A DNA stretch of 56,658 bases. It comes from a virus. Taxonomy: Duplodnaviria; Caudoviricetes. Below, in pieces: positions 5,030 to 47,292 of the stretch. Below the pieces are notes generated by a model. That model was given only the letters and a program-made list of their open reading frames with translations. It was not told the DNA's origin and ran no database searches. The position numbers and the translations under genes were made by a program. Position 1 is the first letter of the stretch. The number at the start of each line of letters is the position of its first letter. Where the stretch lies: positions 1 to 56,658 of IMG/VR virus record IMGVR_UViG_3300009156_000033. The stretch is one strand, 5' to 3'.

Positions 5030-8000
5030 TTATGGGGCTGGGGGTTGCGACAGGCGCTCAGCTTCCTGCACGCGCACGCTCTTGAGCAGGCGCCGGCGCA
5101 GGCGCTCGTCGGGTTCGCGAATCCGCTGCTTGGCTGCGTTCTTGATCGTGTCCGAGTCGATGCCGTATTGAGCGGCGTCCTGCATGAGCTTGTCAAGCGT
5201 CACGCCGTCGCCCTTTTCGAGCGCGTCGAGTATCTGATTGACGAGGCGGGTGCGGTTCTTCTTCGCGATCTCGTTCACACGGCTCAGGAAGGCGCGGTCC
5301 ACTTCGCCGACCGCCATCGCGAGCGGCTTCGCGCCCAAAGCGAGCTTGGCCTTGTCCGCCGCCGTTGGCTTGTAGAGCGGGCGTCCCTGGTCGTCGGTCA
5401 TCCAGCCTTCGCGATTGCCGATGGCTTCGAGCATCTTGCCCCAGTAGGCGGCGGTCGGCGCGAGCTTCGCACCCCACTTGGCGACGTCGTTCAGGTCGCG
5501 GTCCTCGCCCTGCATCGCCGGACCGATGACGGTGTCCCACAACTTCCACGCATCGGACAGCGCCGGGCCCATCCAGTCGGACGCCGTCTTGGGCAGTTGC
5601 GGCGTCACGGCCGGGCCAACATCGACGCCGGCGTAGCCGGGCAGGCCGCGCGACGCCCTCGGCGCCTTGCGATTGAGCCAGTCCTCCAGCGCCCACAGTG
5701 CGCCGATGGCGCCGAGGAACGGCAACGAGCGCAGGAAGTAGATGAAGGCGCGCGGACCGCCCATCGCGAGGAACGCCGTGAGATAACGCACCCACTCGGT
5801 GCCGCGCAGCGATGCGACGAACTCCATCTCCTTGACGAGGTACGCCTTGAACTGGCCGATGAGCCGACCCGGCGGCGTGCGCAGGATGCGGGGCAGCGAC
5901 GCGAGCGTGTAGGTGAATTGGCCGGCGCGAACCGCGTTGCGTGCGAAGGCTTCGGCCTCCTCGCCGCGCAGGGCAAGCTCGCCCTCGGCGTAGCGATAGA
6001 ACGCCGCGAACGCCTCGGGCCGGTTCAGGCGCTCGGCGAACTGGAACATGGCGAGCGGGTGGTACCATGGCACTTCGCTGTGCCCGGCTTCGAGGAACGC
6101 CTGCGCGGTCGCTCCGACGAGGTCGGCGTTGCGGTGCCAGATGTCGCGGAACTCGGGCGAGTGCGCGAACCGTTTGCCCGCGATCCAGTAGCGTGCCCCG
6201 GTCTTCGTCCATGTATGTTGGATGCCGCCGAGCCGGTTGATGAGCGCCGTCGTCGGGCGCCAACCGAGCTTGAGCATCGCTATAATGGTGCGGACGTTGC
6301 CCACGCCGCGGCTGAAGGCGAAGGGCTTCGTGCCGAACGGCGCGAGGATGTAGTCAGCGATCTGGTCGGAGAGCGAGTAGCGCCCGCGCACGTCGTCGAT
6401 GAGCGCTTCGACCTGCTTCTGCGTGTTCGGTGCCAAGTTGGCAAGGTCGATGCGGGCCTGCTTCAGCACCGGGTCGAGCGCGAGCTTCTTGCGCACGCTG
6501 TAGGCGTAGGCGGGCAGCGCGTCGAAGATGTCGTCCTCGCCCTTGAGGATGTTGCGCCGGTGCTGCATCGGTCCGGCGAACTTCGACGCTGGCTTGATGA
6601 CGACCACGGGCGAGCCTTCGGCGCGGAGCATACGCTGGATTTCGCGCACGTCGGTCCCGAGCGCTGCGGCGGCTCGCTGCGCCATGCGGAAGTATTGACC
6701 GCGCGTGAGCTTCGTCGGGAAAGCGGCGCTGGACGCGAACTCGTCGGTGATGGTGAGGCGCGTGACGCTCGGGTTCTCGCGGGCGTAGCGGAGCGCCTTC
6801 TCCTTCGCGGCGACGCGGGTTTCGGCGATGGCGACTGTCGTGCCGTCCGGCGTCACGACCCGGTAGGAGCCGCGCTCGATGTTCGTGATGTAATCGTCGA
6901 TGCCCCAGTGCTCAAGCTCCTCAAGCTCGCGCAAGGCTTGGCGGACGGCGTCCTGTCCCGGTCCGCGCAGGCGGTGGGCGCGGAACGCGTCGGCCTCGTC
7001 CATGCCGCCGAGGATGTCGTGCACCGCTGCGGCGCGTGCCTCGGGCAACGACTCGATGAGGTCGCGCTGCTTGGCGTCGATAATGGCGCGGCGCACCTCG
7101 TCGAAGTAACGACGTATCTCCTGCGCAACGGCGCGCTCGTGCTCAGGCAGTGCATTGAGCGCCGAGTCGTCCCCCGCCATGTTGGCGCGGAGCGCCGTCG
7201 TGATGCGCACGCGTGCTTCGCGGTTAAGCCCACGGCGCAGCGTTCGGAAGTGGTCGGTGTCGCGCGTCACCTGCCCTTGGTAAGCAAGCTCGGCTTCGAC
7301 GAGGCGCGTCACAAGCGGCCCGGCGACGGGGTCGTTGCGGAACTCGAACTCGGGCGACGCGATCCAGTCGCGACCCGGCATCACGTCCTGGCGGCGTATA
7401 GCATCGACGATGTCCGCTTCGCCGCCGAGTTCGACGTCGGCTTCAGGCGGACCGCCGGGCGGTGGCGTGGGCACATCGGGCGACGGCGGGACGGGGGTGC
7501 CTTCGCGGTTCAGGCGACGCTGACGGCGCACGTCCTCGACGGTGGGCATCTCCGATTGTTCGCCCAAGCCCTGCGCTTCAGACCGGCGCGAGAAGAACGA
7601 ACGCACCCCGCTCGGTCCGCCACCCGTCGCACCTTGGTTGGCGTCCGACACCTTCTGGACGGTGTTCGGGTCGCTGACGCCGCGTCGCGGCACGGCACGG
7701 AACCGAGCCTGTAGCAACTCCTGCATACGCTCGGCGGCGGCCTGCACCTGCGAGGCGTCGAACCGCGCCACCATGCGGTTGCCGGTCTTGACGAACTCTC
7801 CGACGATGTTGCGCAGGTCGCGGTCCAGAAACACGCGCCCGCCCGTCGAACGCGCCGCCGGGACGCTGATGATGTAGCCCTGCTGACCGCGTCCCATGCG
7901 GTGAATGCCCTTGGCCTCGACGACGTAGTCGCTGCCGTGCGAGGCGAGGAAGCTCGCCACGGCGCGCCCGCTGACGAGGTCGAAGCGCGGGTCGTGGGCG

Positions 8001-11000
8001 AGATTGGCCGGCGTCCAGTTGCGAGGCATGAGCAGGCCTGTGACGACGTCGCCGGACTGCGACTTGAACCGGACCATCTTGCCTTGGCCGCCAGTCGCGG
8101 TGAAGCCTTGGATGGGGTTGCCCGTGACGAAGTAGCGATTGGCGCGCTGGCCGGCGCGACCCGCGGTCAGGTCGGCGGGGCCCTTGTCGCTGTAATCGAG
8201 CGCCCATTTGCCATGCGCGAGGTCGGCGCCGGTGAGGTGAATTGTGCCCTCGGGCGCATTGACGCCGAAGCGCAGGCGGAACGCGGACGGCGCGACGTTC
8301 ATGCCTTTGGGGAACGTGACGTCGGTCAGCATCCCCTCGTAGGAGTCGCCGGTCTCGGTGTTGGACAGTTCGACGACGTCGCCGGTGCGCGAAAGGATGT
8401 CGGCGAGGCGATCTTGGGTGCCGTGCCAGCGGGCGCGCATCTCACGCAGGCTCATGCGCTGGAGTTCGAGCTTGGTGCGGTCTGCGTCCGTCGCCTTCGA
8501 CAACTTGTCGGCGAGGTCCGCCTCGCGCTTGTCGAAGGACGCTTCGGTGCGCTCCACGAACTTGCGCCAATCCTCGTTCACCTTCGCCTTCGACCCAAGC
8601 CGCCGCTTGAAGTCCGCCTCGATCTCTGCGCCCGTTGGCACGTGCCGGTTGTCGGCGATCTCCCATTGCTGCACGCGCAGGCCAGCGGTGAAGATGTTCG
8701 ACGGGTCGGTGCCTGCGGCGAGTTCCTCGTCGCTCCGTAGCTGCGCGTTCCAATCATCGTGCACGACGATCTCAAGGTCGTAGTCGCCGGTGCTCTTAAG
8801 CTGCTCGATAAGCTGGCGGTAGGCGGGCAGGATTTCGGCGTAGGCGGCCGCCTGATCGGCGTCGGGCAGGAGCGCTTGGCGCCCAGTGAACTTGCGCGCG
8901 ATGTCCTGCTTGACCTCAATGGAGCCGTCCGGGTTGTAGTCGATGCCGAGCCCGAGCAGGCGTTGCACTTCGGGGTTGGCGCCGAGGTACTCGCTCACGA
9001 CGAGGTCGCCGTAGCGGTTGTAGATGTCCTCGGCGTCGATCTTCACGGTGCCGGCGGCTTCGGCGGTCGTGTTCGCGTTGAGCGACTTCATCTTGCGCGA
9101 CGCCATCGCGGCGGGACGCAGCTCGGCCTGCAACGGCAGCACCATGTAGGTGTACTTGGCGCCGTACTTCGAGCCGTCCGGGTTGGTGCCCTCGGACACC
9201 ATGCCGGTGCGTTTGATGCGCCCGAGCGTTTGGACGAAGACGTTGATATCAGCGGCGGCTTGCCCGATTTGCATGTGTCGCGGGCGCTTGTCGCGGAACT
9301 TCACGCTCGCGTGCGCCGACAAGCCCGTCGAGCCGCTCGCGTTGAGCAGCATTCCCTCCACGTCGCCATTGTTAAACCCGTTGACGACGCGGTTCTTGTT
9401 CGCGCGCGGGAACACTCGGTAGATGCCCTCGCCGGTCTCGAAGTTGCGGTACTCGATGCCGCTGGTGCGACCCGTCAGCTCCGACATGCGCACGCCGGCC
9501 TTGGCGAGCTTCTGCACGATGTAGTCGATCGGGCTGATGGGGAAGCGCGACTCGACGGCGTCGGCGAGCGACTGTATCTGGCGGTAGTAGTCGCCCAAGC
9601 CGAACTCGTCCGGGTCAACCTTGTAGATGCGCGTGTCGCCGTTGGGCAGCTTCTCCGTGACGCGCAGGGTGCGTTCGAGGGCGAACTTGAGCAGTTCGTT
9701 CCACCGTAGCTTGATCTCCTGCCCGGGCCGTATGCCATTGTCGGCGACGTAGTGGTCGAGAAACGACTCCATCGTGTTGCTGACCGAGACGAGCGGCTTC
9801 TCGCCCTTCTTCACTGCGGCGATGGCGTCGGCGACGATGTGGTCGGCCTTCGCGGCGAGCAAGAGCTGGCTGATTTGGTTGTGCACGACGGAGGCGAAGT
9901 CCGTCATGTCGATCTGTGTCTGCGTCTGCGCCGTGGAGCCTTGCACGCGCGTCTTCATCGCGGCGCTGAACCGCACGATTTCGCCGAGCACGTCCGTCAC
10001 CGCGTCAATGTCCTCAACGAGCTTGGCCGGGTCGGCGATGGGCGGTTGCTTGACCTCGAAGCTGACGCCGGTGAAGTCGCGTTCGCGCCGGATGTACTGA
10101 CCTGCCTTGGCGAGCGCTTCGCTAACGGCCTGCTGGAGAGCGACGCCGCCGCGCTTCATCGCATCGACGACCTGCGCGAAGGATTGCGCCGACCGCCCAA
10201 GCGCAGTGCGGAAGTACACGGGCATGTTCTCCGGGCGCTTCGCGAACGTGGCGCTCATGTAAAGGACGCCGCCTTGACCGGGGAGCGTGCCCGCGCGTCG
10301 CAGGAGGCCGGGCACGGCGATGGTCGTGCGGTTCGCGCCACTCCCACGCTGCACCTGTCCGCCGCTGATGAACGCTGCCTGCATGGAGTCGGTCGCGTTC
10401 CCGGCCGCTTCGTGCGCCTCGTCTAAGATGACGATGGTCGGGTTGGCTTCGGCGATCCGCTCAAGGAACTCCTGCCGCGCATTGCGCATGTTGACCTGCG
10501 AGTAGGTCGCGAAGATGGCGTTGTAACCTGCGGCGGCGAGACCGCGCTCAGTCACCTCCTGCATGGCGCGGGCTTGGACGCCCGGACCGGGCGCTCGGTG
10601 CACGACGCGCCCCTGCGCATCGACGATGCTCGCCTTGCCCGGGTCGCCGAAGATGAGCGGGCGCACCTCCGTGTGGATGTCGAGCAGGTCGCCGTACATG
10701 TCCGTGAACAGCTTCGGGTCCTTCGTGAAGAACACGGGCACCTTGCCGTTGAGGATGGCGTAGCGAATGAGCGCCGCACCCTGCCGCCCTTTGCCGATGC
10801 CGGTTTCGTCGCCGATGATGAGCGCTTCGCCGCCGGTCTCGATCTGGTCGATAGCGAGCGCGACGCCGTCGATCTGTTCGGCTGCCATGACGTTGCGCAG
10901 CTCGTCCACCTCCATGTTGAGGCGATCGGCGACGAACTCGTCGATGGGACCGACGCGGGCGACGAGCTTGTCGAGCGCAGCGTGCACGCCGCCAGCGATG

Positions 11001-13699
11001 TTCTTGGGGATGAGCGTCCCGAACGGCGGCGCGTCGGATCGCGGGACGTAGGGGACTTGGAACTCCGTGCCCGCTACAGCAGGCGGCTTAGGTACGCTTC
11101 CAGGCTGAGCTGCTCCGCCAGCGCCCGCGCCTCCGGTTGGGGCAGCAGCGGGGGGTTGCGCAGGTGGGACCACGCCACCTTCCACTGGTGCAGCGGGCTT
11201 CCCTCCACCGCTGGGTTGAGGAGCAGCAATTTCGGCGTTCGTGGGTTCGTCAGAAGGTCGCTCGGGAGGAAATTGAGCGCTTCCTGGGGCAGGTCGCGGT
11301 CCAGGCGCAGGTTGGCGTGGGCCACCTCCCCCTCCGACGACTCCGCCACCAGCCGCTCCAGCAGGTCGGCTTGCAGGCGCAGGAAGTCCTCCTGCTTGGA
11401 CGGCGGGCGCTGGCCTTGGCGCAGCAGGGTCAGGAAGTCCGGGCTCTCTTGCACCGGGCACCACACTTGATCGGCGTCGGTCAATCTCACTGCGTATCCT
11501 TTCGGCTTCCCGCCAAACGTCGCTCCACGAATCGTAACGCGCAACCTCTTTCGGGGCGAGTTCGCCGCCGATGGGAAGCTGTCGGCGACCTGCGACCACG
11601 ATAACACGGACCGGCCACTTCGCGCCCTGCTTGGCGTAGAGGTCGCCGGCCACCTCGAAGTTGGCGACGACGTTGTAGTGACCGTAAACGTAGTTCTCGA
11701 ACACCCACTGTGCGCCCTTGCCACCCGGGCCTTCTTCGCGGCGAGCGCCCATGATGATGGAGCCAACGCCGTCGTCCTGCAACGCGTCGAGGGCGCGGAG
11801 CGCGATGATGTGTTCGAGGCGCGTGATGCCGTAGCCGCCGAAGTTGACGTTCGGGATCGAGCCGAACGGCGGGTTGAGCTGGACGAACGGGTAAGACGTG
11901 CCGGGCGTGTAGGTAGTGGCGTCGTGCGGCGTGACGGTGCCGACGCCGAAGCGTTGGAGGGACGCTTGGCGCTTCGGGTCGAGTTCGTTGCCGTGGCCGC
12001 CGGCGACGTTCGAGCCGATGAGCAACATGCCATTGCCGGCGGTGGCGTCGTAAACCGGCGCGTCAGGCGTGATGCCGGCGGCGTAGGAGAGCGCGTAACT
12101 AAGCGGCGCAGGCGTCGAGTAGGCTTGGAGTTCGACGCTGGTGCTGGTGCGGGCGCTGAGCGTCGGCTGACGATTGTAGAGGTCGATGAGCTGCGTGAAC
12201 TTGCCGAGCGGGGCGAGTGCCGGGTTGACGGCGATGGCGTGGGCTTGGGCGACGACCTCGGACTCGACGGCCTCCTGCACGTCCTTGATAGGGCGGCCCT
12301 GGTCGGCGGCCAGCTTGCGCAGGGCGGCGGACTTGGCCTGCGGAGTGTCGGCGGAGGCGATGATGTCGGCGATGGGCGACTGTGCGGCGGGCGGCACTGA
12401 AGCGGGTGCCGCCGGAGCGGTTGGCGGATCGTGCCGATACATCGGCTTGCCCGACAGTGGGTCGTCGCGATAATGCTTGAATCCAAGGCGCTCGTAGAAG
12501 CGGTTCAGCGCGGGCTGCATCGCAGGCGACTCCGCAACAGCGGTCAGGAACACAGGCTTACCGGCAGCGTTCGCCTGTTCGATTACTTCGCGCATCTTAG
12601 CCGTGCCAATACCACGACCTCGCGCTTCTGGCGGCACACTCAAGCCAGACACCTTGAAACCGTCGGGGTGCTCGGTGACGACGATGCGAGCTTCGGGCGC
12701 AGGCGCAGCGGGCGGCGCCGGCGCGGGCGCGCCGGGTTGCTCGACGGGCGGCGCGGGCACAGGAGCAGGCGGCACAGGCGCGGGCGGGGCGGACAAGAGC
12801 GCCGTTGGCCCTCGCGGCGCAGGCGGACGCGGTCTCGGGCGAGGTTCAAGCACGGTTGGCTCGGGCGACGGCGGTGTTGGGCCACGGTCCGTCAACTGCG
12901 CCGGTGGCTCAGGCGTGATGTCGCGGGCGGCGTTGAAGCGGGCTTCGGCACGTGCGGCGACCGACTCGCGCCACGCGTCTAACAGGCTCGGCACGCGCCC
13001 AGTAGCCCGCGCGGTTCCCGCGAGCACGCCGCCGGTCTGCAAAGCATCACCAACCGCGTTGTAGTACGCCAGCGGGTCGGGTTCGCTACCAAAGCGGGAA
13101 TGCTTTACCACGTTCTCAACAACATCAGGCACCTGCGGCAGCGTCGTGGCGAAGATAGCAGGCAGCGCAACTTCCGGCGCTACCGTAGCCGCCCCCGCAA
13201 TCGCCGCACCCGCAGGCGACGTGAGCGCATTAACGCCGCGCACCGCACTTTCTCGCAATCCGATGCTGACCGGCGCCTGCGCACGCTGGACGCTCTCAAG
13301 CAAACGTGGGCGCGCGGCGTTGGCTTCCCACTGTGCTAATTGCTCCGGCGTCATGTCGTTCGTGACGGTGGGTGGACCCAACGGTCCAAGGGCGAACAAG
13401 CGATTGAAGCGATCAAGCAAACCGGGACCGGGCGGCGGACCGCCAGAGAGCTGCTCGGCGGTGATGGGCGGGAGCGGTGGCAGACCCGGCTCCTCGGCAA
13501 CGGTGGTACCAGGCAGCGGTAGCGCCGGGTGCGACACGTACTCGTCTTGGTACCGGGCGGGGACGTCGGCAACGGAGCGCGAAGGGCGTGGGGACGGTAG
13601 CGGAATCAGCGGTTCGACCGCCGACCGCATCTCGGCTTCGGTCGCGTCATCGGGGAACTCGACGGGGCCGACGCCGTCCACTTGGATGAGCTTGGGCAT
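5030..13699 (-). CDS. Giant polyvalent (DarB-like) virion/ejection protein: GNAT + N6-adenine MTase + Strawberry-notch SF2 helicase + C-terminal helical domain
   Basis: Start MPKLIQVDGVGPVEFPDDATEAEM right after the upstream stop (2889 aa). GNAT: VPPEARGRGIG...FYERLGF. MTase: YSTPAPL, DATAGNG, NPPF. Helicase: GDETGIGKGRQ, ATYSQ, LDEAH, SATFAKRP, ELTGR, GSTGLSAHA, QTLGRIKRTG. Confidence 0.85.
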   Translation of the reverse strand: MPKLIQVDGVGPVEFPDDATEAEMRSAVEPLIPLPSPRPSRSVADVPARYQDEYVSHPALPLPGTTVAEEPGLPPLPPITAEQLSGGPPPGPGLLDRFNRLFALGPLGPPTVTNDMTPEQLAQWEANAARPRLLESVQRAQAPVSIGLRESAVRGVNALTSPAGAAIAGAATVAPEVALPAIFATTLPQVPDVVENVVKHSRFGSEPDPLAYYNAVGDALQTGGVLAGTARATGRVPSLLDAWRESVAARAEARFNAARDITPEPPAQLTDRGPTPPSPEPTVLEPRPRPRPPAPRGPTALLSAPPAPVPPAPVPAPPVEQPGAPAPAPPAAPAPEARIVVTEHPDGFKVSGLSVPPEARGRGIGTAKMREVIEQANAAGKPVFLTAVAESPAMQPALNRFYERLGFKHYRDDPLSGKPMYRHDPPTAPAAPASVPPAAQSPIADIIASADTPQAKSAALRKLAADQGRPIKDVQEAVESEVVAQAHAIAVNPALAPLGKFTQLIDLYNRQPTLSARTSTSVELQAYSTPAPLSYALSYAAGITPDAPVYDATAGNGMLLIGSNVAGGHGNELDPKRQASLQRFGVGTVTPHDATTYTPGTSYPFVQLNPPFGSIPNVNFGGYGITRLEHIIALRALDALQDDGVGSIIMGARREEGPGGKGAQWVFENYVYGHYNVVANFEVAGDLYAKQGAKWPVRVIVVAGRRQLPIGGELAPKEVARYDSWSDVWREAERIRSEIDRRRSSVVPGAREPGLPDPAAPRPAPAVQAGGLPAPASRPAGAAGGGVVGGGGGPRQPAPGPRPAPGSAQFPPERPSDEPTNAEIAAPQPSGGGKPAAPVEGGVVPPAQPPAAAPTGGAGAGGAAQPGSVPKPPAVAGTEFQVPYVPRSDAPPFGTLIPKNIAGGVHAALDKLVARVGPIDEFVADRLNMEVDELRNVMAAEQIDGVALAIDQIETGGEALIIGDETGIGKGRQGAALIRYAILNGKVPVFFTKDPKLFTDMYGDLLDIHTEVRPLIFGDPGKASIVDAQGRVVHRAPGPGVQARAMQEVTERGLAAAGYNAIFATYSQVNMRNARQEFLERIAEANPTIVILDEAHEAAGNATDSMQAAFISGGQVQRGSGANRTTIAVPGLLRRAGTLPGQGGVLYMSATFAKRPENMPVYFRTALGRSAQSFAQVVDAMKRGGVALQQAVSEALAKAGQYIRRERDFTGVSFEVKQPPIADPAKLVEDIDAVTDVLGEIVRFSAAMKTRVQGSTAQTQTQIDMTDFASVVHNQISQLLLAAKADHIVADAIAAVKKGEKPLVSVSNTMESFLDHYVADNGIRPGQEIKLRWNELLKFALERTLRVTEKLPNGDTRIYKVDPDEFGLGDYYRQIQSLADAVESRFPISPIDYIVQKLAKAGVRMSELTGRTSGIEYRNFETGEGIYRVFPRANKNRVVNGFNNGDVEGMLLNASGSTGLSAHASVKFRDKRPRHMQIGQAAADINVFVQTLGRIKRTGMVSEGTNPDGSKYGAKYTYMVLPLQAELRPAAMASRKMKSLNANTTAEAAGTVKIDAEDIYNRYGDLVVSEYLGANPEVQRLLGLGIDYNPDGSIEVKQDIARKFTGRQALLPDADQAAAYAEILPAYRQLIEQLKSTGDYDLEIVVHDDWNAQLRSDEELAAGTDPSNIFTAGLRVQQWEIADNRHVPTGAEIEADFKRRLGSKAKVNEDWRKFVERTEASFDKREADLADKLSKATDADRTKLELQRMSLREMRARWHGTQDRLADILSRTGDVVELSNTETGDSYEGMLTDVTFPKGMNVAPSAFRLRFGVNAPEGTIHLTGADLAHGKWALDYSDKGPADLTAGRAGQRANRYFVTGNPIQGFTATGGQGKMVRFKSQSGDVVTGLLMPRNWTPANLAHDPRFDLVSGRAVASFLASHGSDYVVEAKGIHRMGRGQQGYIISVPAARSTGGRVFLDRDLRNIVGEFVKTGNRMVARFDASQVQAAAERMQELLQARFRAVPRRGVSDPNTVQKVSDANQGATGGGPSGVRSFFSRRSEAQGLGEQSEMPTVEDVRRQRRLNREGTPVPPSPDVPTPPPGGPPEADVELGGEADIVDAIRRQDVMPGRDWIASPEFEFRNDPVAGPLVTRLVEAELAYQGQVTRDTDHFRTLRRGLNREARVRITTALRANMAGDDSALNALPEHERAVAQEIRRYFDEVRRAIIDAKQRDLIESLPEARAAAVHDILGGMDEADAFRAHRLRGPGQDAVRQALRELEELEHWGIDDYITNIERGSYRVVTPDGTTVAIAETRVAAKEKALRYARENPSVTRLTITDEFASSAAFPTKLTRGQYFRMAQRAAAALGTDVREIQRMLRAEGSPVVVIKPASKFAGPMQHRRNILKGEDDIFDALPAYAYSVRKKLALDPVLKQARIDLANLAPNTQKQVEALIDDVRGRYSLSDQIADYILAPFGTKPFAFSRGVGNVRTIIAMLKLGWRPTTALINRLGGIQHTWTKTGARYWIAGKRFAHSPEFRDIWHRNADLVGATAQAFLEAGHSEVPWYHPLAMFQFAERLNRPEAFAAFYRYAEGELALRGEEAEAFARNAVRAGQFTYTLASLPRILRTPPGRLIGQFKAYLVKEMEFVASLRGTEWVRYLTAFLAMGGPRAFIYFLRSLPFLGAIGALWALEDWLNRKAPRASRGLPGYAGVDVGPAVTPQLPKTASDWMGPALSDAWKLWDTVIGPAMQGEDRDLNDVAKWGAKLAPTAAYWGKMLEAIGNREGWMTDDQGRPLYKPTAADKAKLALGAKPLAMAVGEVDRAFLSRVNEIAKKNRTRLVNQILDALEKGDGVTLDKLMQDAAQYGIDSDTIKNAAKQRIREPDERLRRRLLKSVRVQEAERLSQPPAP

Positions 13700-13700
13700 G

Positions 13701-14516
13701 TCATTTGGCCGACGGCGTCCACTTGAGGTTGCCGTCCGCGTCGCGGCTGAAGCGACCGACGATGGCGTTGGTGTTCGCGGGCGCGTTCGTCGAGACGGTC
13801 GGCGCAGGCACCAAGGCGCGGTCGCCCATGAGCGTGCTGCGACCACGCCGCACTGCTTCGAGCTGCTGGAGCAGTTCACCGTAACGGGCGTGCTTCGGAT
13901 GGTTCGGGTTGCGGGCAGCGGCGAGCATGTCGATGCTGTCGAGTTCGGCAAGGATGCCCCGCTCCATCGCATTGTAGCCCGGCATACGCTGTGCCTCGGT
14001 GAGCGGCTTCTCGACGTAGTCGGGGATGTAGTGCTGCGTCTTGGGGCCGGAGCGCCCGAACAGGCCGACGCGCTGCTTGGTCGCCGGGTCGATGGCTTCG
14101 ACGAGGGTCGTGTCCAAAGCTGACATGGGCGCCGCGAACTCCTTCTCGGCGAGCGCCGCGCGGCGGTTCTCAACGGCGATTCGCGCCTTGTCGTAATCGA
14201 GCAGGCGCGACTCCTGCGCCGTTTGGTTGGCTTCCTGCGCCGTCTGATGCGCGACCTGCTGCTGGAACTGGGCGGCCTGCTGCCCGAGCCGCTGAAGGTC
14301 GAGCAAGCGCGACTGCTCAAACTGGCGCTGGCGCTCCGCCTGCTCAGCTTCGCGTTGCGCCAACTGCGCCTGTCGCTCGAACCGGGCTTCGGCGAGTGCT
14401 GCGGCGCGCTGGTTCTGGTCGGCGACGGCGATACCAGCGCGTGCGCCCGCTTCGAGCGCCTGCGTGAAGAACGCCGGACTCACGTTGAGCCAAGGAGGGA
14501 TGTCGCCAAGGGCCAT
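13701..14516 (-). CDS. Putative internal virion/ejection protein
   Basis: Gln/Ala-rich coiled coil, directly upstream of the giant protein. Confidence 0.55.
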   Translation of the reverse strand: MALGDIPPWLNVSPAFFTQALEAGARAGIAVADQNQRAAALAEARFERQAQLAQREAEQAERQRQFEQSRLLDLQRLGQQAAQFQQQVAHQTAQEANQTAQESRLLDYDKARIAVENRRAALAEKEFAAPMSALDTTLVEAIDPATKQRVGLFGRSGPKTQHYIPDYVEKPLTEAQRMPGYNAMERGILAELDSIDMLAAARNPNHPKHARYGELLQQLEAVRRGRSTLMGDRALVPAPTVSTNAPANTNAIVGRFSRDADGNLKWTPSAK

Positions 14517-40782: not shown

Positions 40783-41675
40783 GCACGACCGTCATCTATC
40801 ACCGCGCCGACTTCGACGGCATCTTTTGTCGCGAGATCGCCCGCAAGTTCCTGCCCGGCGCAACGCTGGTCGGGTGGGACTACGGCGACCCGGTTCCGCC
40901 GATGCCCCCGGCGGGCGACGGCGAAGTTGCGCTCTACATGCTCGACATCAGCGTGGACGGACTCATGGACTACCCTGGCCTAACGTGGATCGACCACCAC
41001 AAGAGCGCGATGGAGAAGTTCCCGGGGAGCATCGCGGGCTACCGTATCGACGGCGTTGCGGCGTGCAGGCTCGCGTGGCAGTGGTTCAGCGGCTTCGTGA
41101 ACAAGTTCGGTAACGACACACCAACGAAGGAAGACTACGTAGAGCGTCGCGTTACCGAACCGTGGGCCGTCCGCCTCGCTGGCGAGTACGACATTTGGGA
41201 CAAGCGCGATCTGAACGCTGAACTGTTCCAGCACGGACTGCGGAGCGAGGAACTATTCTCGCCGATGTGGGACCAGTTGTTGAGCGACCACGGCGACGGC
41301 ACAGTCACACGTCTGCTCAACCAAGGTCGCGCCTTGCAATACGCCAAGACGCAGGAGAACGCGTCCATCATCAAGTCGAGCGGCTTCACCGTCGATTTCG
41401 AGGGCCTGTGCTTCCTCGCTTGCAACGCCGCCCGCTACAACTCGCACTTGTTCACTGCGGGCATCCTGCCTGAACACGACGCGTTGCTCGGCTTCAACTA
41501 CGATGGCAAAGGCCGTTGGCGCGTGTCGCTCTACCATGCGCCGGGCAAGGAGCATCACGACCTGTCGCTGATCGCGGTAAAGCATGGTGGTGGCGGGCAC
41601 CGGGGCGCTTGTGGCTTTCGTGCCACGTCGCTGCCTTTCCTAACCACGCCGCCCGCAACGGCGCCCGCCGCATGA
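40779..41675 (+). CDS. DHH/DHHA1 phosphoesterase
   Basis: YHRADFDG, LDIS, WIDHH, GGGGHRGACGF. Confidence 0.9.
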   Translation: MSTTVIYHRADFDGIFCREIARKFLPGATLVGWDYGDPVPPMPPAGDGEVALYMLDISVDGLMDYPGLTWIDHHKSAMEKFPGSIAGYRIDGVAACRLAWQWFSGFVNKFGNDTPTKEDYVERRVTEPWAVRLAGEYDIWDKRDLNAELFQHGLRSEELFSPMWDQLLSDHGDGTVTRLLNQGRALQYAKTQENASIIKSSGFTVDFEGLCFLACNAARYNSHLFTAGILPEHDALLGFNYDGKGRWRVSLYHAPGKEHHDLSLIAVKHGGGGHRGACGFRATSLPFLTTPPATAPAA

Positions 41676-41682
41676 ACTTGAC

Positions 41683-41771
41683 GAGCGCGCGGCGCAACGA
41701 AGCGCACTTGGGCCGAACCGTTACGGGTTACGCTAGCCCAAGGTCGGTGGTACGATCCACCGCCGCGCTCA
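41683..41771 (+). ncRNA. tRNA-like cloverleaf with expanded anticodon arm
   Basis: Acceptor GAGCGCG/CGCGCTC+A, D arm GCGC/GCGC, CTTGGGC/GCCCAAG arm enclosing 22 nt, T-like arm GGTGG-TACGAT-CCACC. Confidence 0.55.
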
Positions 41772-41887
41772 CTCATTCCCCCGCCCCTATCAACCGGCGA
41801 GCGTCAGCGTCGGAAAAGTCGCGTTGCGCAGGCGAGGCGGGGCCTCGGACTCATTAATCGCCTAAACGCGGCGGCTGACGCGCTTCT

Positions 41888-42091
41888 ATGAAGACCGGCC
41901 AACAACGCAAGGGCGACCCGGACAACCCGCCGTGCTGGTGCGGAGTAAAAAATCCGTACTACGAACCCCTGCCTCGTCGCTGTGGCGGTTCTGGCGTCAT
42001 CGAATGCCTGTGCGGTGGCGACTTCTGCGTTTGCCATTGGCACGGCGAAGCTGAGTGCCTTGGTTGCCCTGACTGCGAAGACGATGACTGA
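41888..42091 (+). CDS. Small Cys-rich Zn-binding protein
   Basis: CWCG, CGGSG, CLCGGDFCVC, CLGCPDC. Confidence 0.65.
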   Translation: MKTGQQRKGDPDNPPCWCGVKNPYYEPLPRRCGGSGVIECLCGGDFCVCHWHGEAECLGCPDCEDDD

Positions 42092-42278
42092 CTTTATGGA
42101 CACACGAACTGGAATGATCCTGCCACTGGAGCATGTGCCAGCGGGCCAGAAACAACACTTCGTCGAAGTGAAGCGCGACCTAACCTTGCGCGAGAAAGCC
42201 GAGGCGCAGATTCGGCTATACGCGCCTTGTGCTTGCGGGAGCGGTAAGAAGTTCAAGTTCTGCTGTCGTCGGCCATGA
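42084..42278 (+). CDS. SEC-C motif protein
   Basis: PCACGSGKKFKFCC. Confidence 0.8.
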   Translation: MTDFMDTRTGMILPLEHVPAGQKQHFVEVKRDLTLREKAEAQIRLYAPCACGSGKKFKFCCRRP

Positions 42279-42490
42279 ACGCGCCACGCAACCAACAGTG
42301 GGTGCAGGAGATGTGCGAGCTTGTGAAGAACAAGATGCCCGAGGGTTATTGCTTCGTCGTGTTTGGCTTCCCGGTGGATCGCGACGGACGCTGCTACTAC
42401 GCTTCCGACGCGACTCGCGAAAGCGCTATCAACGCGCTCCGAATATGGCTGGCGCACGCTGACGGCCAGTTCCTTAAGCACATGCCATGA
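42275..42490 (+). CDS. Hypothetical protein
   Basis: ATGA-coupled. Confidence 0.6.
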   Translation: MNAPRNQQWVQEMCELVKNKMPEGYCFVVFGFPVDRDGRCYYASDATRESAINALRIWLAHADGQFLKHMP

Positions 42491-42693
42491 GCCTCCCCGA
42501 CCGCCGTCCCCGCCTCACCTGCTACCACTGGGAATGCGGCAACGCCACGTTTACGACCGTCGCGCACGACATGGACGAAGCCTTCGAGCGTGCGAGTCGC
42601 GAAGCTGAGGCGCTCGGTCTCGGCGACTGCCCGCTCAAGTGCACAGACTACTACGAACACGACCCGGCGGGAGGCGATGGGCCGGAAGACTGA
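42487..42693 (+). CDS. Hypothetical protein
   Basis: ATGA-coupled. Confidence 0.55.
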   Translation: MSLPDRRPRLTCYHWECGNATFTTVAHDMDEAFERASREAEALGLGDCPLKCTDYYEHDPAGGDGPED

Positions 42694-42901
42694 ACGTGTG
42701 GCGTGCCCGAACGCAATTCGAGAACCGTGGGTTGGTCGCCGATTTATGAGCCGTTACGCTAATCGCGGCAAGTGGGAGTGGGAGGTGCTCACGGAGCCTA
42801 CCTTGAGCCAGAACGTCGAGTTCTTGTGGGCGCGTCCTGTTCGTCGTGTGCCCTCGAGTACGCGTCCGTGGCGTGTTGCCCGCGGCTCAAAAAACGATTG
42901 A
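42677..42901 (+). CDS. Hypothetical protein
   Basis: GGGAGG SD before ATG 42677. Confidence 0.45.
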   Translation: MGRKTERVACPNAIREPWVGRRFMSRYANRGKWEWEVLTEPTLSQNVEFLWARPVRRVPSSTRPWRVARGSKND

Positions 42902-42930
42902 TGTGTGATTGACGCAATCGAAAGGAAACG

Positions 42931-43176
42931 ATGAAATCCAAAGCAAAGCCTGTGCGTAAAGAGCGGGGCGGCAGTTCGCGTGGAGCGCGTGGTTCTGCGG
43001 CGCTTGGATGGTCATACAGCCACTACCGCGCATCGCTCTACCTCGATGGTGAAAGGTTCGCAATCGTGACACCTGACGGACGCAATGCGCTCTCAAAGAA
43101 GGACGCCGCGCTCCTGCTCGAAGCCCTGAACCGGAAGCCGCAGAACGACAAAGCTGAGAGATCGGCGCGCAAATAA
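42931..43176 (+). CDS. Cassette hypothetical protein
   Basis: GAAAGGA SD; its N-terminus reads through the first attC half site and it stops inside the next attC. Confidence 0.65.
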   Translation: MKSKAKPVRKERGGSSRGARGSAALGWSYSHYRASLYLDGERFAIVTPDGRNALSKKDAALLLEALNRKPQNDKAERSARK

Positions 43177-43253
43177 TCCAATGACTTTCGCCACGCAAAC
43201 GAGCACTGGAACTGAGACGGCCCGCGCCGATTCTCTCCAGCGTCTTGTTCGGC
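43140..43253 (-). repeat. attC: attC site
   Basis: Minus strand: R'' GCCGAAC-5nt-L'' GCTGGAGA ... L' TCTCAGC-6nt-R' GTTCTGC, with an extrahelical G. Confidence 0.85.
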
Positions 43254-43759
43254 GTCCCATCCGCTTCACAGTCGAGGACGCAAATAACTGCGGCTGGTGC
43301 TTCAACTGTGGGCCAGGCGCGCTGTGCGCGGTGCTCAATCTGACCCCCGCTGAAATCCGGCCACTGATGGGCGACTTCGAGACCAAGGGATACACGAACC
43401 CGACGCTGATGCTCGAAGTGCTGAACCGCGCTGGCGCGAAATATCGGCAAGTGTATAGGAGCGACGACCCGAAAGGGCGGATTCCGAAAATCCAACACGG
43501 CCTGATGCGCGTGCAATGGGGCGGCCCGTGGACGAAACCCGGCGTGCCGATGCGTGTGCGATACCGGCACACACACTGGGTCGCGCTGCGAAACGACAAC
43601 ACGGAAGTCTTCGACGTGAACGCCACCTGCGTCGGTGGCTGGATGGAAGCGACGGAGTGGGAATGGCAACTCATACCGTGGCTCATCAAGGAGGGCGTGC
43701 CGAAAGGTGACGGAACTTGGTGGCCGACGCATGCGCTCGAAGTGACGCCGAACGACTGA
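43181..43759 (+). CDS. Cassette-borne C39/papain-like peptidase
   Basis: NCGPGALCAVL...HWVAL...VFDVN gives a Cys-His-Asp triad. Confidence 0.65.
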   Translation: MTFATQTSTGTETARADSLQRLVRRPIRFTVEDANNCGWCFNCGPGALCAVLNLTPAEIRPLMGDFETKGYTNPTLMLEVLNRAGAKYRQVYRSDDPKGRIPKIQHGLMRVQWGGPWTKPGVPMRVRYRHTHWVALRNDNTEVFDVNATCVGGWMEATEWEWQLIPWLIKEGVPKGDGTWWPTHALEVTPND

Positions 43760-43881
43760 GATCAGAGACGGAGGCGAACAATGTATAACCCTCAAAAGAC
43801 TGTCTGTTTCAAGTGTCACAAGAATCCGTGCGAGTGCCCGGCCAAGAGAGAGCCTACGTTCTCTGCATCGAATGGTTCGGC
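43747..43881 (-). repeat. attC: attC site
   Basis: Minus strand: GCCGAAC-CATTC-GATGCAGA ... TCTGATC-TCAGTC-GTTCGGC. Confidence 0.8.
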
Positions 43882-44050
43882 GGATACGTTGCTTGTTATC
43901 CAGACCTGTGATGGTCACAGTTATAGAGGAAAATCGACGCGCGAGGTAGCACTGAGGATTGCACAATTCATTTTGGCTGCGCCAGAGAAAGCGACTAATC
44001 AACGCCCCAGCGATGAGGAGGAAAACACCGCGGCGGTTGGTTGGGGTTGA
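43781..44050 (+). CDS. Cassette hypothetical protein (possibly frameshifted near the 3' end)
   Basis: GGAGG SD inside the attC; another frame continues to PNEKLTDSRE* in the next attC half site. Confidence 0.5.
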   Translation: MYNPQKTVCFKCHKNPCECPAKREPTFSASNGSADTLLVIQTCDGHSYRGKSTREVALRIAQFILAAPEKATNQRPSDEEENTAAVGWG

Positions 44051-44135
44051 TTTCCCGGCTGAAAACCGTGTCAAGCAGCATCATCGCGCAGCCTGATCCG
44101 CCCAACGAAAAGCTGACCGACAGCCGCGAATAACC

Positions 44136-44297
44136 ATGACGCCAGTATTTCACAGCGAGCTTCCGACAACAAGCCTTCGCGGTGCGGGTTGGCGTGTTGT
44201 AGGCGAGCGTGGTGGCGGTTCATGGAGCCGCGAGAGCCGCCCGCGAGTGGACACGCACCCGCTTCAGACAAAGATGTTGTGGGAGGTGACGACGTGA
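44136..44297 (+). pseudogene. Truncated C-terminal fragment of an XF1762/Mom-like GNAT gene
   Basis: SLRGAGWRVVGERGGGSWSRESRPRVDTHPLQTKMLWE resembles that family's C-terminus (recalled from memory); GTGA overlap with the next gene. Confidence 0.5.
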
Positions 44298-45760
44298 ACG
44301 CGGACGCCGTAGTACCCAACCACCCGCCGTCCATTGACCCCGGCGCGATCCGTCTCGCCGTCGTAGCTGAAGCCCCGGCCGTCGAGGAATGCTCGTGGCG
44401 TATCTGCTCCCAAGGCCACGGTTACGGTGGCGAGCACTGGGAGAACCGCCAGATCGTCACGCGCGATCGCTGCCCTGCCTGCGGCTCGACCCAGTGGACC
44501 GAGCGCCCGACGCCCTTGGTCGGCCAGAGCGGACGCCTCCTGAACGACCTCCTCAAGGACGCCGGTCTGCCGCGTGAGCGCGTCTGGGTCGGCAACGTCT
44601 CGCGTCGTCCGCTTGCCGAAGCCGAAAAGACGCTCGACCAGAACCGCGGCGGCTTGGCCCGCCTCGCCTACGACCTGTCGCAGTTTAAGCCCAACTGCGT
44701 CCTCGCGCTGGGTGGCCTTGCGCTCAAGGCGTTCTTGGGCGACCACCGCTTCGGCGACTCCATCACCAACTGGCGCGGCAGCGTGTTTGAGGGCGTACTC
44801 GATGGCGTCACCTACAAGGTCGTTGGGGCAATGCACCCAGCGGCCATCTTGCGCGAGCCGAGCCAGCTTGCCCTTCTGCGCTTCGACGTTGCCCGGAGCG
44901 TGGCCGAGGCGGCTTCCAGCACGCTGGACACCCCCCGGCGCGTTGTGGACGCGCCAAACGACGCCTACGCGGTTGTGGAGGCCCTCCAGCGGATCCGGGC
45001 ACGCCGCGAACCCGTTGGCTTCGATATTGAGGGAGGGTGCGAAACGGGCGTCACCGTCCTGTCGTTCGCCGACACCCCACTGCACGCCTTGAGCGTGCCG
45101 TTTCGGCGCATGGATTGGTCGCGGGTGTGGGGCGACCAGGGCGAGGACACCATCTGGTACGCCGTCCGCCTCCTGTGCGAGGACGAGGCGGTGCCCAAGG
45201 TTATGCACAACGCTGGGTACGAGACGTTCGCCCTGCGCTGGCTGCACGGCATCCGGATCCAAGGCGTCGAGGACTCGATGCTGGCTTTCCACGCCGTTTG
45301 GCCCGAGCTGGACAAGGCCCTGGACGTGGTCGCGTCGCTGCTCACCCGTCAGCCGTACTGGGGTACGACGAAGGACTGGCGCACCGACGAGGACCGCGAC
45401 ACCTACAACGCCATCGACTCCTGCGTCTGCCTCGAAGCGTTCCAAGCTATCCAACGCCTTGAGGAGTGGACGCCCGCCGTGGCGGCATACTACCGGCACT
45501 GCCGCGACCTGCTCGAGCCGTGCGGCGAGATGTCCTTCGCCGGCATCCCCTACGACGCTGCGGCGCGCGACACCCTCGTTGCCAAGCTCAAGGCCGAGGT
45601 GTATGCGTTGACCGGCGAACTGGACACGCTCGCGGGCATCGCACCGCCGACGTTCGCCGAGGTTGCCGAAGCCGTCTGCATGAAGATACGCCTGCCAAAG
45701 GTCGGGGACTGGGCCGACATCCTGACGTATGCCCGCCCAACGATGCGCGAGACGCTATGA
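44294..45760 (+). CDS. DNA polymerase N-terminal part: family-4-like uracil-DNA glycosylase + 3'-5' exonuclease
   Basis: VAEAPAVEE...PLVGQSGRLL, VGNV, LALGGLAL, MHPAAILR; ExoI FDIEG, ExoII MHNAGYE, ExoIII YNAIDS; GGAGGT SD before GTG 44294. Confidence 0.85.
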   Translation: MNADAVVPNHPPSIDPGAIRLAVVAEAPAVEECSWRICSQGHGYGGEHWENRQIVTRDRCPACGSTQWTERPTPLVGQSGRLLNDLLKDAGLPRERVWVGNVSRRPLAEAEKTLDQNRGGLARLAYDLSQFKPNCVLALGGLALKAFLGDHRFGDSITNWRGSVFEGVLDGVTYKVVGAMHPAAILREPSQLALLRFDVARSVAEAASSTLDTPRRVVDAPNDAYAVVEALQRIRARREPVGFDIEGGCETGVTVLSFADTPLHALSVPFRRMDWSRVWGDQGEDTIWYAVRLLCEDEAVPKVMHNAGYETFALRWLHGIRIQGVEDSMLAFHAVWPELDKALDVVASLLTRQPYWGTTKDWRTDEDRDTYNAIDSCVCLEAFQAIQRLEEWTPAVAAYYRHCRDLLEPCGEMSFAGIPYDAAARDTLVAKLKAEVYALTGELDTLAGIAPPTFAEVAEAVCMKIRLPKVGDWADILTYARPTMRETL

Positions 45761-47292
45761 AGCAGCCCACCCTCAATTTCGACGAGTCGCCCAGCCCGGT
45801 GGCCCGGGAGCGATGTGAGCGGGAGCCCGTGCAAGGACGCTCATCGGCGCATGGTTCCGCCGGCACAAACGCCTTGCACAGCGGCGACTCGTCGATTGAC
45901 CCGGACTGGGAGGTGCAGGATGACGACGACCCGGACGACGGCGATCCGGCGCCCGAACCGAGCGACCCGACGGACGACTCCGCGAAGCCCAAGCGCACCA
46001 AGAAAGCGCCCAAGCCCCCGCCCGACCCCGCCGGCCCCCGCTCCATCGCCGCCCGCATCGTCTCGCTCGCGCAACAAGGTATCCTCACCGACACCGAACG
46101 CGGCGAACTCGATACCCTCCTCGATCGCCACATCAACAGCGGCTCGACCAAGCAGCTCCGCGAGTGGCTTTACGAACGCTGGGCCCTGCCGAAGCGCTAC
46201 ATCAAGGAGGGCTCGCGCAACACGACCAAGCTCTCCGTCGCCGTAGACGCCCTGCTTGCCACGTACCGCCAAACCCGCGATCGCCGCCTTGAGCTCCTGC
46301 TGCAACTCAGCGATCGCAAGACGCAGCTCGAATCGCTCGGCTGCAAGCTCGACAAGGACGGGCGCATACGCTTCTCCCTGAACATCGCCGGCACCAAGGT
46401 CGGGCGCATGGCCTGCAACGCCTCGCAAACCGGCTCCGGATTCAACCTACAAACCGTCACCCGCGCCCACCGCCACCTGTTCGGCGCCGACCCGGGCCAC
46501 GACTTCTACCAGATTGATCTCAAGACGGCCGACGGCTGGACCATTGGCGCGGAGTGCGCCGCCCTCGGCGATACCCGGATGCTCGACGACATGCGCGCCG
46601 GCTTCAAGCCTGCCAACGCCGTCGTCCTATTGCTCGAGCACGGCGTAGCGGTCAATTCTTGGCCCATGGAGCGCTGTCTTGAGGCCCAGCGCGGCATCGA
46701 CAAGGGTGCGTGGCAATACCTCGCCTGCAAAAAGGGCATCTGGGGCACGGCTTACGGCCTCGGCGACGTCGCACTGAGCGAGAAGATCCTTGAGGAAGCG
46801 TGGAAGGAGGCCGGCGAGCTGGTCCGCGTCACGGCCGCCGACTGCAAGCGCCTACAGGCCGCCGTCCACGCCCGCTATCCCGGCATCAAGCGGCGCTGGG
46901 AACGCATTAAGATGCTGCTTGCCCGAGACGGCAAGCTGGAGGCGTGCGGCGGCCAAGTCCGCGACTTCTTCGGCCCAAAAACCGACCACGGCACGCACAA
47001 GGAAGCCTATGCCTACTCGCCTGCGGCCAACACCGCATGGGCCAATGGCCTCGCCCTGCTCGCCATCTGGCGCGACCCGGCCAACATCGCCCCGGACGGC
47101 ACACGCATCTTCCGCCCGCTCCTCCAGGTTCACGACAGCGTCCTCGGCCAAGCCCCGGTCGAGCGCCGTGCGTGGGTGGAGGAACGCATACCGACGTGGT
47201 ACGCGAACCCGCTGACGGTCGCCGGCACGACCTTCGTCATCCCCTACGAAGCGTGCCGCGGGACGAACTGGGGCGACGTGAAGGCGATATGA
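45757..47292 (+). CDS. polA: DNA polymerase family A, polymerase part
   Basis: INSGSTKQL, GTKVGRMA, NLQT, motif A IDLKTAD, motif B KKGIWGTAYG, motif C LQVHDS. Confidence 0.85.
   Translation: MKQPTLNFDESPSPVARERCEREPVQGRSSAHGSAGTNALHSGDSSIDPDWEVQDDDDPDDGDPAPEPSDPTDDSAKPKRTKKAPKPPPDPAGPRSIAARIVSLAQQGILTDTERGELDTLLDRHINSGSTKQLREWLYERWALPKRYIKEGSRNTTKLSVAVDALLATYRQTRDRRLELLLQLSDRKTQLESLGCKLDKDGRIRFSLNIAGTKVGRMACNASQTGSGFNLQTVTRAHRHLFGADPGHDFYQIDLKTADGWTIGAECAALGDTRMLDDMRAGFKPANAVVLLLEHGVAVNSWPMERCLEAQRGIDKGAWQYLACKKGIWGTAYGLGDVALSEKILEEAWKEAGELVRVTAADCKRLQAAVHARYPGIKRRWERIKMLLARDGKLEACGGQVRDFFGPKTDHGTHKEAYAYSPAANTAWANGLALLAIWRDPANIAPDGTRIFRPLLQVHDSVLGQAPVERRAWVEERIPTWYANPLTVAGTTFVIPYEACRGTNWGDVKAI

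Follow-up and report, generated by a model that had tools for sequence, protein, structure and literature searches.

Clusters of attC sites without an integron integrase (CALINs) have been described in virulent phages, for example in Tetrasphaera phage TJE1, and IntI1 recombined five of the six phage attC sites tested (Qi et al. 2023, PMC9892861). According to the text of the same paper, methyltransferases are common cargo of phage CALINs, and complete integrons are present in temperate phages, namely in Vibrio anguillarum prophages, in P1 with class 1 integrons and in Shewanella phage M16-3. The general idea of integrase-less phage attC clusters recombined by IntI1 is already published there. 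Here we compare these systems with an attC array at positions 42931–44297 of virus record IMGVR_UViG_3300009156_000033. The window, i.e. the whole record of 56,658 bases, is classed as linear and about 98% complete, and its sequence is present in rhizosphere metagenome runs. The array lies inside the replication operon, between the genes for a DHH phosphoesterase and a DNA polymerase. The region is probably a genuine CALIN of a novel rhizosphere phage, for which we propose an integrase acting in trans. Like TJE1, the window combines at least two attC sites with small accessory genes and lacks an integrase. In TJE1, however, the genes are located on the attC top strand, while in the window they are on the bottom strand and have start and stop codons inside the sites; the attC families of the two phages also differ. 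Phage CALINs as such are known, while inverted cargo overlapping the attC sites is new.

The attC sites and their detection

Two complete attC sites, A and B, are found on the minus strand at 43140–43253 (114 nucleotides, nt) and 43747–43881 (135 nt), with 493 nt between them. On the minus strand the 5′ half of site A reads GCCGAAC, 5 nt, GCT-G-GAGAGA-A-TCGGCGCG and is followed by the loop, after which the 3′ half reads CGCGCCGA-TCTCTC-AGC, 6 nt, GTTCTGC. Site B has the same layout, with GCCGAAC and GTTCGGC as its boxes on the minus strand. Both sites are inverted repeats with the conserved AAC of the R′′ box and GTT of the R′ box that characterize attC. The unpaired spacers between R and L boxes are 5 and 6 nt long, as in the aadA1 attC; in TJE1 and Vibrio attC sites they are 5 and 5 nt. 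In both sites the L′′ arm has two extrahelical bases, 8 nt past R′′ and 6 base pairs beyond, and these positions are identical to those in the aadA1 and TJE1 sites. As the bulges are on the L′′ arm, the attC bottom strand is the plus strand of the window. The total lengths of 114 and 135 nt compare with 50–128 nt among the known attC sites fetched for comparison. The usual upper bound of published attC lengths is about 141 nt.

The known sites came from records of TJE1 (L070), a V. anguillarum phage (L071), Shewanella phage M16-3 (L072) and a P1 phage with class 1 integrons (L073, L074), picked via the accession numbers in Qi et al. 2023 (PMC9892861). Known sites always have their extra bases on the 5′ arm of the cassette-coding strand in these records, in line with Nivina et al. 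2016 (PMC5027507), whereas in the window they are on its 3′ arm. Therefore the coding strand of the window is the attC bottom strand. The role of extrahelical bases in strand choice is discussed in the text of Nivina et al. 2016 (PMC5027507).

Both arms are common to sites A and B as direct repeats (D2 and D3). The ends of the three cassettes are complementary, in agreement with the original prediction, which had been made from the sequence without database searches: 42992–43001 pairs with 43137–43146 and 43247–43256 with 43744–43753 at 10 of 10 positions each, and 43875–43885 pairs with 44096–44106 at 10 of 11. The GGAGG motif noted in the second site is present at 43770–43774, in one arm of site B. 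Folding energies of the single strands are ordinary (z of −1.6 for site A and −0.5 for site B).

Sites were detected by a scanner and by statistical models. The scanner looked for R boxes complementary in at least 6 of 7 positions with AAC/GTT, spacers of 4–7 nt and a bulged L helix; its thresholds were set post hoc, when sites A and B had already been seen. In the 56,658 bases it found only sites A and B, and 40 dinucleotide shuffles gave four matches in total, with none in 37 of them. Covariance model R2 was built from 15 known attC sites (TJE1, Shewanella, Vibrio and one class 1 site) and run with filters off over the whole window on both strands. At E ≤ 10 it gave exactly two matches, 43140–43253 (14.9 bits, E 0.79, the best in the window) and 43747–43881 (10.9 bits, E 5.5), both on the minus strand, at full length and with exact ends. 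These scores are at noise level, so the weight of the R2 matches comes only from their landing on the predicted ends. The original prediction had named a covariance-model search as its test, and the outcome is divided: our own model falls exactly on both sites, but the scores do not stand out. Another model, R1, from six class 1 and TJE1 sites, was rejected as too narrow, with true Vibrio attC sites scoring only 13.6–19.5 bits.

Model R3 was built from 10 window-type sites including A and B, which score 83.1 and 67 bits as members of the training set. R3 recovers class 1 attC sites with the correct strand and ends (aadA1 37.5 bits, cmlA 37.4 bits, estX 24 bits). In the R3 alignment 13 of the 15 L-helix pairs have changed on both sides, and 89.7% of the cells pair as compared to 31–40% with slid partners, a count biased towards structure because the sites were selected for pairing. 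The distal R-box positions pair poorly, as they should where the outer R′ sequence is already that of the next cassette. Arm profiles built solely from 60 metagenomic sites rank the arms of B and A first or nearly first in the window, and the arms of site B are the window's best match for both arms (E 0.024 and 0.19). Running R3 with filters off over 41500–45500 revealed no further complete site.

Two half sites had also been predicted, and neither is called a complete attC. The degenerate left site (42889–42998, minus strand) retains R′′, the spacer and the start of L′′ at 42998–42976, while pairing of the L′ arm has been lost. This one has independent support: the arm-5 profile from the 60 metagenomic sites matches 42998–42976 on the minus strand as its second best in the window (E 0.23). 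R3, at 4.5 bits, gives no call of a complete site here. A possible R′ box with spacer, AAC GAT TGA, can be read at 42893–42901. The array may once have extended further left. A small upstream ORF (open reading frame) at 42746–42901 ends with the same AAC GAT TGA, i.e. Asn-Asp-stop, similarly to the end of ORF2 at site B. Right half site C (44096–44133, minus strand) retains the R′ box, a 6-nt spacer and the L′ arm, and the opposite arm (about 44179–44195) is only partly complementary. Site C is called neither by R3 nor by the arm profile; what suggests it is likeness to the family arm and to the arm of the site in locus L001, and its direct repeat (D6) with an arm of site A.

The soil attC family and the direction of its cargo

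Sites A and B are members of a large soil attC family that also flanks true integron integrases. A two-arm pattern search found at least 119 metagenome contigs with window-type sites. We applied R3 to 59 loci, i.e. 55 of these contigs (all of at least 2,500 bases) together with L120, L211, L219 and L058, and obtained 159 sites at E ≤ 1e-3, many of them in arrays of 5–14 sites spaced 100–900 nt apart. Local tblastn with IntI1 and a Vibrio IntI showed that integrase genes adjoin such arrays. The integrases of L117 and L058 score 445.5 and 356.2 bits with TIGR02249 (cut-off 265), and both loci show the classical layout, with intI and the top strand of the array pointing away from each other. Across the family the consensus is GCC(G/T)AAC for R′′ and GTT(C/A)GGC for R′. 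The array next to the L117 integrase has GCCGAAC...GTTCGGC in each of its three sites. R3-type sites are also found in one Verrucomicrobiia and one Binatia metagenome-assembled genome (MAG). A 16-nt arm pattern was tried in viral contigs and abandoned: its 62 loci are about the chance expectation, and only a minority contain real sites.

Soil arrays of the L117 type have the attC family, the R-box consensus GCCGAAC/GTTCGGC and the bulge positions in common with the window, and their site spacing of 300–900 nt is also the same. They differ in that the integrase is adjacent and divergent and the genes are on the top strand. Their loops are shorter (mostly 86–112 nt for the total site) and need not accommodate start codons.

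The window was expected to lack an integrase, and indeed neither TIGR02249 nor PF00589 matches anywhere in the 56.6-kb record, i.e. no tyrosine recombinase is found. With at least two close attC sites and no integron integrase in the record, the array corresponds to a CALIN. It does not correspond to a complete integron, as there is no intI in the window (no search for attI was made). Four other virus records with such arrays are likewise without an integron integrase, and one of these has an ordinary phage integrase.

Regarding the orientation of the cargo, all five phage contexts (the window, L016, L025, L058 and L064) agree in that the attC top strand runs antisense to the genes of the phage. 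The ORFs of the window are on the plus strand, i.e. the attC bottom strand, and run in the direction of the phage operon, as originally predicted. If only cassettes with gaps of 300 nt or more are considered, eight metagenomic arrays have the longest ORF on the top strand in 37 of 39 cases, while phage contigs have it on the bottom strand in seven of eight. The eighth phage cassette is the window's own, and homology puts its real gene on the bottom strand as well. Note that the coding strand of cassettes was judged by homology, Pfam and frame conservation; GC content at third codon positions was indecisive. Pfam supports six of the nine top-strand ORFs tested in seven arrays (HEAT twice, WD40, Asp/Glu racemase, TPR and 2′-5′ RNA ligase). 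On the bottom strand it supports a PAPS reductase and Dam (just past the last site) in L016 and HTH_3 in L025. A methyltransferase-like cassette common to L058, L016 and L202 scores 172–185 bits in the bottom-strand frame against 109–119 bits in the reverse one. The methyltransferase cargo of the published phage CALINs is seen here in L016 and L058. An otherwise orthodox attC family carries reversed cargo in five of five phage contexts, one of them with its own integrase, and cargo of the usual direction in bacterial-type arrays.

The phage context with its own integrase is IMG/VR contig L058 (1031–14590), where DnaB, an array of seven attC sites, intI and an SU10-type major capsid gene are on one strand and the cassette genes are on the attC bottom strand. 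Temperate-phage integrons resemble L058 in having an integron integrase and an array within a phage record. They are, however, pieces of bacterial chromosomal or class 1 integrons with the usual cargo orientation, whereas L058 has its intI between DnaB and the structural genes, on the strand that encodes the phage genes, and its cargo on the bottom strand. Between the last attC and intI of L058 there is a conserved ORF common to L018/L032, L208 and a Sorangium MAG contig (L081). The array of L064 (8964–14218) separates the portal gene from the large terminase gene, where accessory genes are not usually located. The array of L025 adjoins the terminase gene and that of L016 is near a ParB-like gene. 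Metagenome contigs L205 and L208 have bottom-strand cargo as well, and L208 has a gene in common with L058. Between the window and the other array-bearing phage contigs we found no gene in common except ORF2. One 61-residue match of the window is to L205.

Reverse-oriented cassettes also occur in chromosomal integrons, often as toxin–antitoxin pairs with their own promoters, and are a minority within arrays of the usual orientation. They are similar to the window in having the gene on the attC bottom strand. The array of the window, by contrast, is inverted in its entirety and is read within the phage operon. Divergent attC directions are mentioned for phage P12002L in PMC9892861, where, supplementary tables aside, no systematic inversion is described. 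Our literature search, which did not extend to those supplements, found no report of systematically inverted cargo in phage arrays or of an L058-like phage integron.

Cassette genes and units

Conservation indicates that ORF2 (43181–43759, plus strand, 192 amino acids) is a real gene, with seven relatives in viral contigs and 29 in bacterial genomes from a wide range of phyla. Since no in-frame start codon separates 43181 from the conserved part, the start must lie in the loop of site A. The stop codon (43757–43759) is in the spacer of site B, where the sequence reads AAC GAC TGA. Cys43 and His132 are invariant. The predicted structure has a pLDDT (confidence score) of 80.6, and its best PDB matches are the C39 peptidase domains of ComA and PCAT1, which are weak (E 2.5e-3, TM similarity score 0.40–0.55). 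The fold is predicted to be that of a papain-like or C39-like cysteine peptidase on the basis of this weak likeness. Neither a Pfam nor a PHROG family matched the ORF2 family. In the bacterial loci (L077–L105) the motifs NCGP..AL, GYTNP, QWGGPWT and RYRHTHW are conserved, and the family occurs in Verrucomicrobiota, Chloroflexota, Binatia, Myxococcota, many Alphaproteobacteria, Acidobacteriota and others.

The prediction that start codons are in the attC loops and stop codons inside the sites is borne out by ORF2 and, as regards the start, also by ORF3 (43781–44050, plus strand, 89 amino acids). ORF3 starts in the loop of site B, has its first 33 codons inside that site and has a CxxC...CxC motif near the N-terminus. 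In four loci (the window, L003, L016 and L001) the upstream frame passes through the R′ box, whose AAC it reads as Asn, and stops a few codons on. ORF1 (42931–43176, plus strand, 81 amino acids) starts at the position expected for the loop of the degenerate left site and ends with TAA after the L′ arm of site A. It has no BLASTP likeness to the ORF at the equivalent position of L003. ORF1 may not be a real gene, and the 154-nt unit 42992–43145 may be an ORF-less cassette. Very short units between consecutive attC sites (gaps of about 100–150 nt) in L144, L058 and L016 resemble ORF-less cassettes. ORF4 (44136–44297, plus strand, 53 amino acids) begins 2 nt past the stop codon closing the arm of site C and extends to where the polymerase gene starts. 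ORF1, ORF3 and ORF4 had no Pfam or PHROG match.

Site A and ORF2 together form cassette unit 2 (43146–43752, minus strand), whose limits are the G/TT cut points in sites A and B. The combination of ORF2 and an attC covering its 5′ end is seen again in L003 and L001, where the neighbours are unrelated. The arm sequences of these sites differ and still pair. Homology between the window and L001 extends to GACGCCGAAC and stops directly after AAC. Breakpoints at G/TT had been predicted for relatives of the phage; the comparison covered the ORF2 unit against L001 and L003, with the L001 homology ending at AAC, and no close phage relative was found in which the prediction could be followed further.

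Two other views of these units were rejected. ORF2 does not behave as a bacterial cassette gene: only five weak R3 matches (E ≤ 1) are found in its 29 bacterial loci and none adjoins the gene. ORF-less attC insertions at gene junctions do not account for the array either, since each R′′ partner sits a whole cassette away and not adjacent.

Explanations of the array and its genomic setting

We read the region as a phage-associated variant of the soil family, with inverted cargo overlapping the sites. An integron integrase would act in trans and come from the host or a co-infecting phage, e.g. of the L058 type. It would bind the folded attC bottom strand, here the coding, non-template strand, cut at AA/C and excise or insert units of one attC and one gene. 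Expression of the cassette genes would come from read-through of the phage operon and not from the integron promoter Pc. The original prediction had the phage borrowing the integrase of its host to shuffle genes into the replication operon. This is plausible, but the host need not be the source, as the unrelated phage contig L058 carries an integron integrase, the same site family and the same inverted cargo. Contigs from four further rhizosphere runs over 41000–46000 are identical to the window where they cover it, some of them bridging A or B, and contain no joints; at their low depth they are uninformative on excision.

How the inversion arose can be proposed from L058. With intI on the phage coding strand, the array top strand would come to lie antisense to the operon. 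Because of this polarity only bottom-strand cargo would be expressed in L058, and cassettes from such a pool, being bottom-strand-coded, would work in other phages only if their insertion makes the bottom strand the coding one. As an additional effect, it may be speculated that the recombining strand would be the non-template strand of a heavily transcribed operon. More tentatively, there could be a phage-adapted branch of integrons, in which integrases and a cassette pool circulate among unrelated soil phages, the cargo is bottom-strand-coded with start and stop codons packed into the sites, and transcription lays the recombining strand bare. The window phage would then be an integrase-less client.

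If the sites are active, phages would own a way to trade accessory genes by integron recombination, and the arrays would be a natural test of what sets cassette orientation. The accessory genes seen include methyltransferases, a PAPS-reductase-like protein and a cysteine-peptidase-like protein. This also has a bearing on the movement of gene cassettes between phages and soil bacteria.

Several observations weigh against the proposed CALIN reading. The full core consensus RYYYAAC/GTTRRRY, as quoted in the text of PMC5027507, is not present in the window: the base beside AAC/GTT departs from it in both sites (GAAC/GTTC), and the R′ box of site A (GTTCTGC) has one more departure. GTTC alternates with GTTA in the family arrays, and by the family consensus the GAAC/GTTC boxes are the norm. 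The best R1 match in the window is partial (13.7 bits, starting at R′′ of site A). R2 scores are below those of held-out class 1 attC sites (26–43 bits) and overlap with three probable false matches in the P1 backbone (11–11.8 bits). R3 failed on four of seven class 1 attC sites and on all three TJE1 sites and gave one weak Vibrio match; moreover, its training sites had been picked by pairing. A classical gene cassette has a promoterless gene on the top strand followed by attC, while ORF2 is on the attC bottom strand and its attC covers the 5′ end of the gene. In integron theory, as given in the text of PMC5027507, bottom-strand selectivity serves to face promoterless cassettes towards Pc. In a classical integron, bottom-strand cargo could not be expressed from Pc. 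The 29 bacterial ORF2 loci have no such site beside the gene. Neither a search of a phage collection with the window nor a search of viral contigs with both polymerase parts found a relative of the window phage that would show gain or loss of cassettes at G/TT. Finally, the half sites at both array ends are also compatible with a decaying relic.

A relic is the main rival explanation, although we consider it rather unlikely. The array would have entered once, by ordinary or illegitimate recombination with a phage or an integron, and would now be immobile, its hairpins persisting as gene ends, starts and ribosome-binding regions. The half sites at both ends and the nearly complete record without an integrase are consistent with this, and the phage's own exonuclease and Sak4-like annealing protein would favour mosaic recombination. 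Family arrays are also present in otherwise unrelated phages. On the other hand, sites A and B retain every pairing feature and both bulges despite coding overlap, and the equivalent sites ahead of ORF2 in L003 and L001 still pair although their sequences differ. Pairing kept in spite of sequence change and coding overlap points to selection on structure.

It is much less probable that the hairpins are mRNA elements unrelated to integrons, i.e. gene-junction structures for translational coupling or RNase processing with a superficial likeness to attC. They are indeed on the mRNA strand, with stops in one arm, starts in the loop and GGAGG hidden in the arm of site B. But arrays of this family adjoin integron integrases and diverge from them in the usual way, the bulge positions and spacers equal those of known attC sites, and R3 recovers class 1 sites. 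An added role in RNA could exist, yet it leaves the origin of the sites unexplained. Chance palindromes in GC-rich DNA have a negligible probability: the 8-mer GTTCGGCG is common with one mismatch (250 matches in the window) and the folding z-scores are weak, but two sites in the window against four matches in 40 shuffles, both arms in common between A and B, and two independent models (R2 and the arm profiles) landing on exact ends contradict this explanation, which we judge to be already refuted by the shuffles, R2, R3 and the metagenomic arrays.

The plus-strand replication module around the array consists of an exonuclease, a Sak4-like annealing protein, the DHH phosphoesterase and a family A DNA polymerase with a uracil-DNA glycosylase (UDG)-like part, and a DNA methyltransferase gene is located downstream of it. 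GC content at 43001–44000 is 0.58 as compared to 0.60–0.67 in the adjacent bins. No tRNA was detected in the window, and Rfam at gathering thresholds gave no match there (presence of an attC model in Rfam is not confirmed). On the minus strand, 5030–14320 is one ORF of 3,096 codons, for which PHROG gave only faint matches; the product may be a giant protein of the virion or one that is injected. In the region of this ORF, R3 gave a match at 14249–14360 on the plus strand (18.2 bits, E 0.049, GC content 0.71), which is absent from the R2 and scanner results and thus likely to be false. Two ORFs encode the family A DNA polymerase itself (44189–47292); they are in different frames and have an overlap of about 300 nt. 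The UDG-like and exonuclease part corresponds to positions 557–888 of phrog_17 and the polymerase part to positions 894–1207. A split enzyme, a programmed frameshift or an assembly error could each account for this arrangement.

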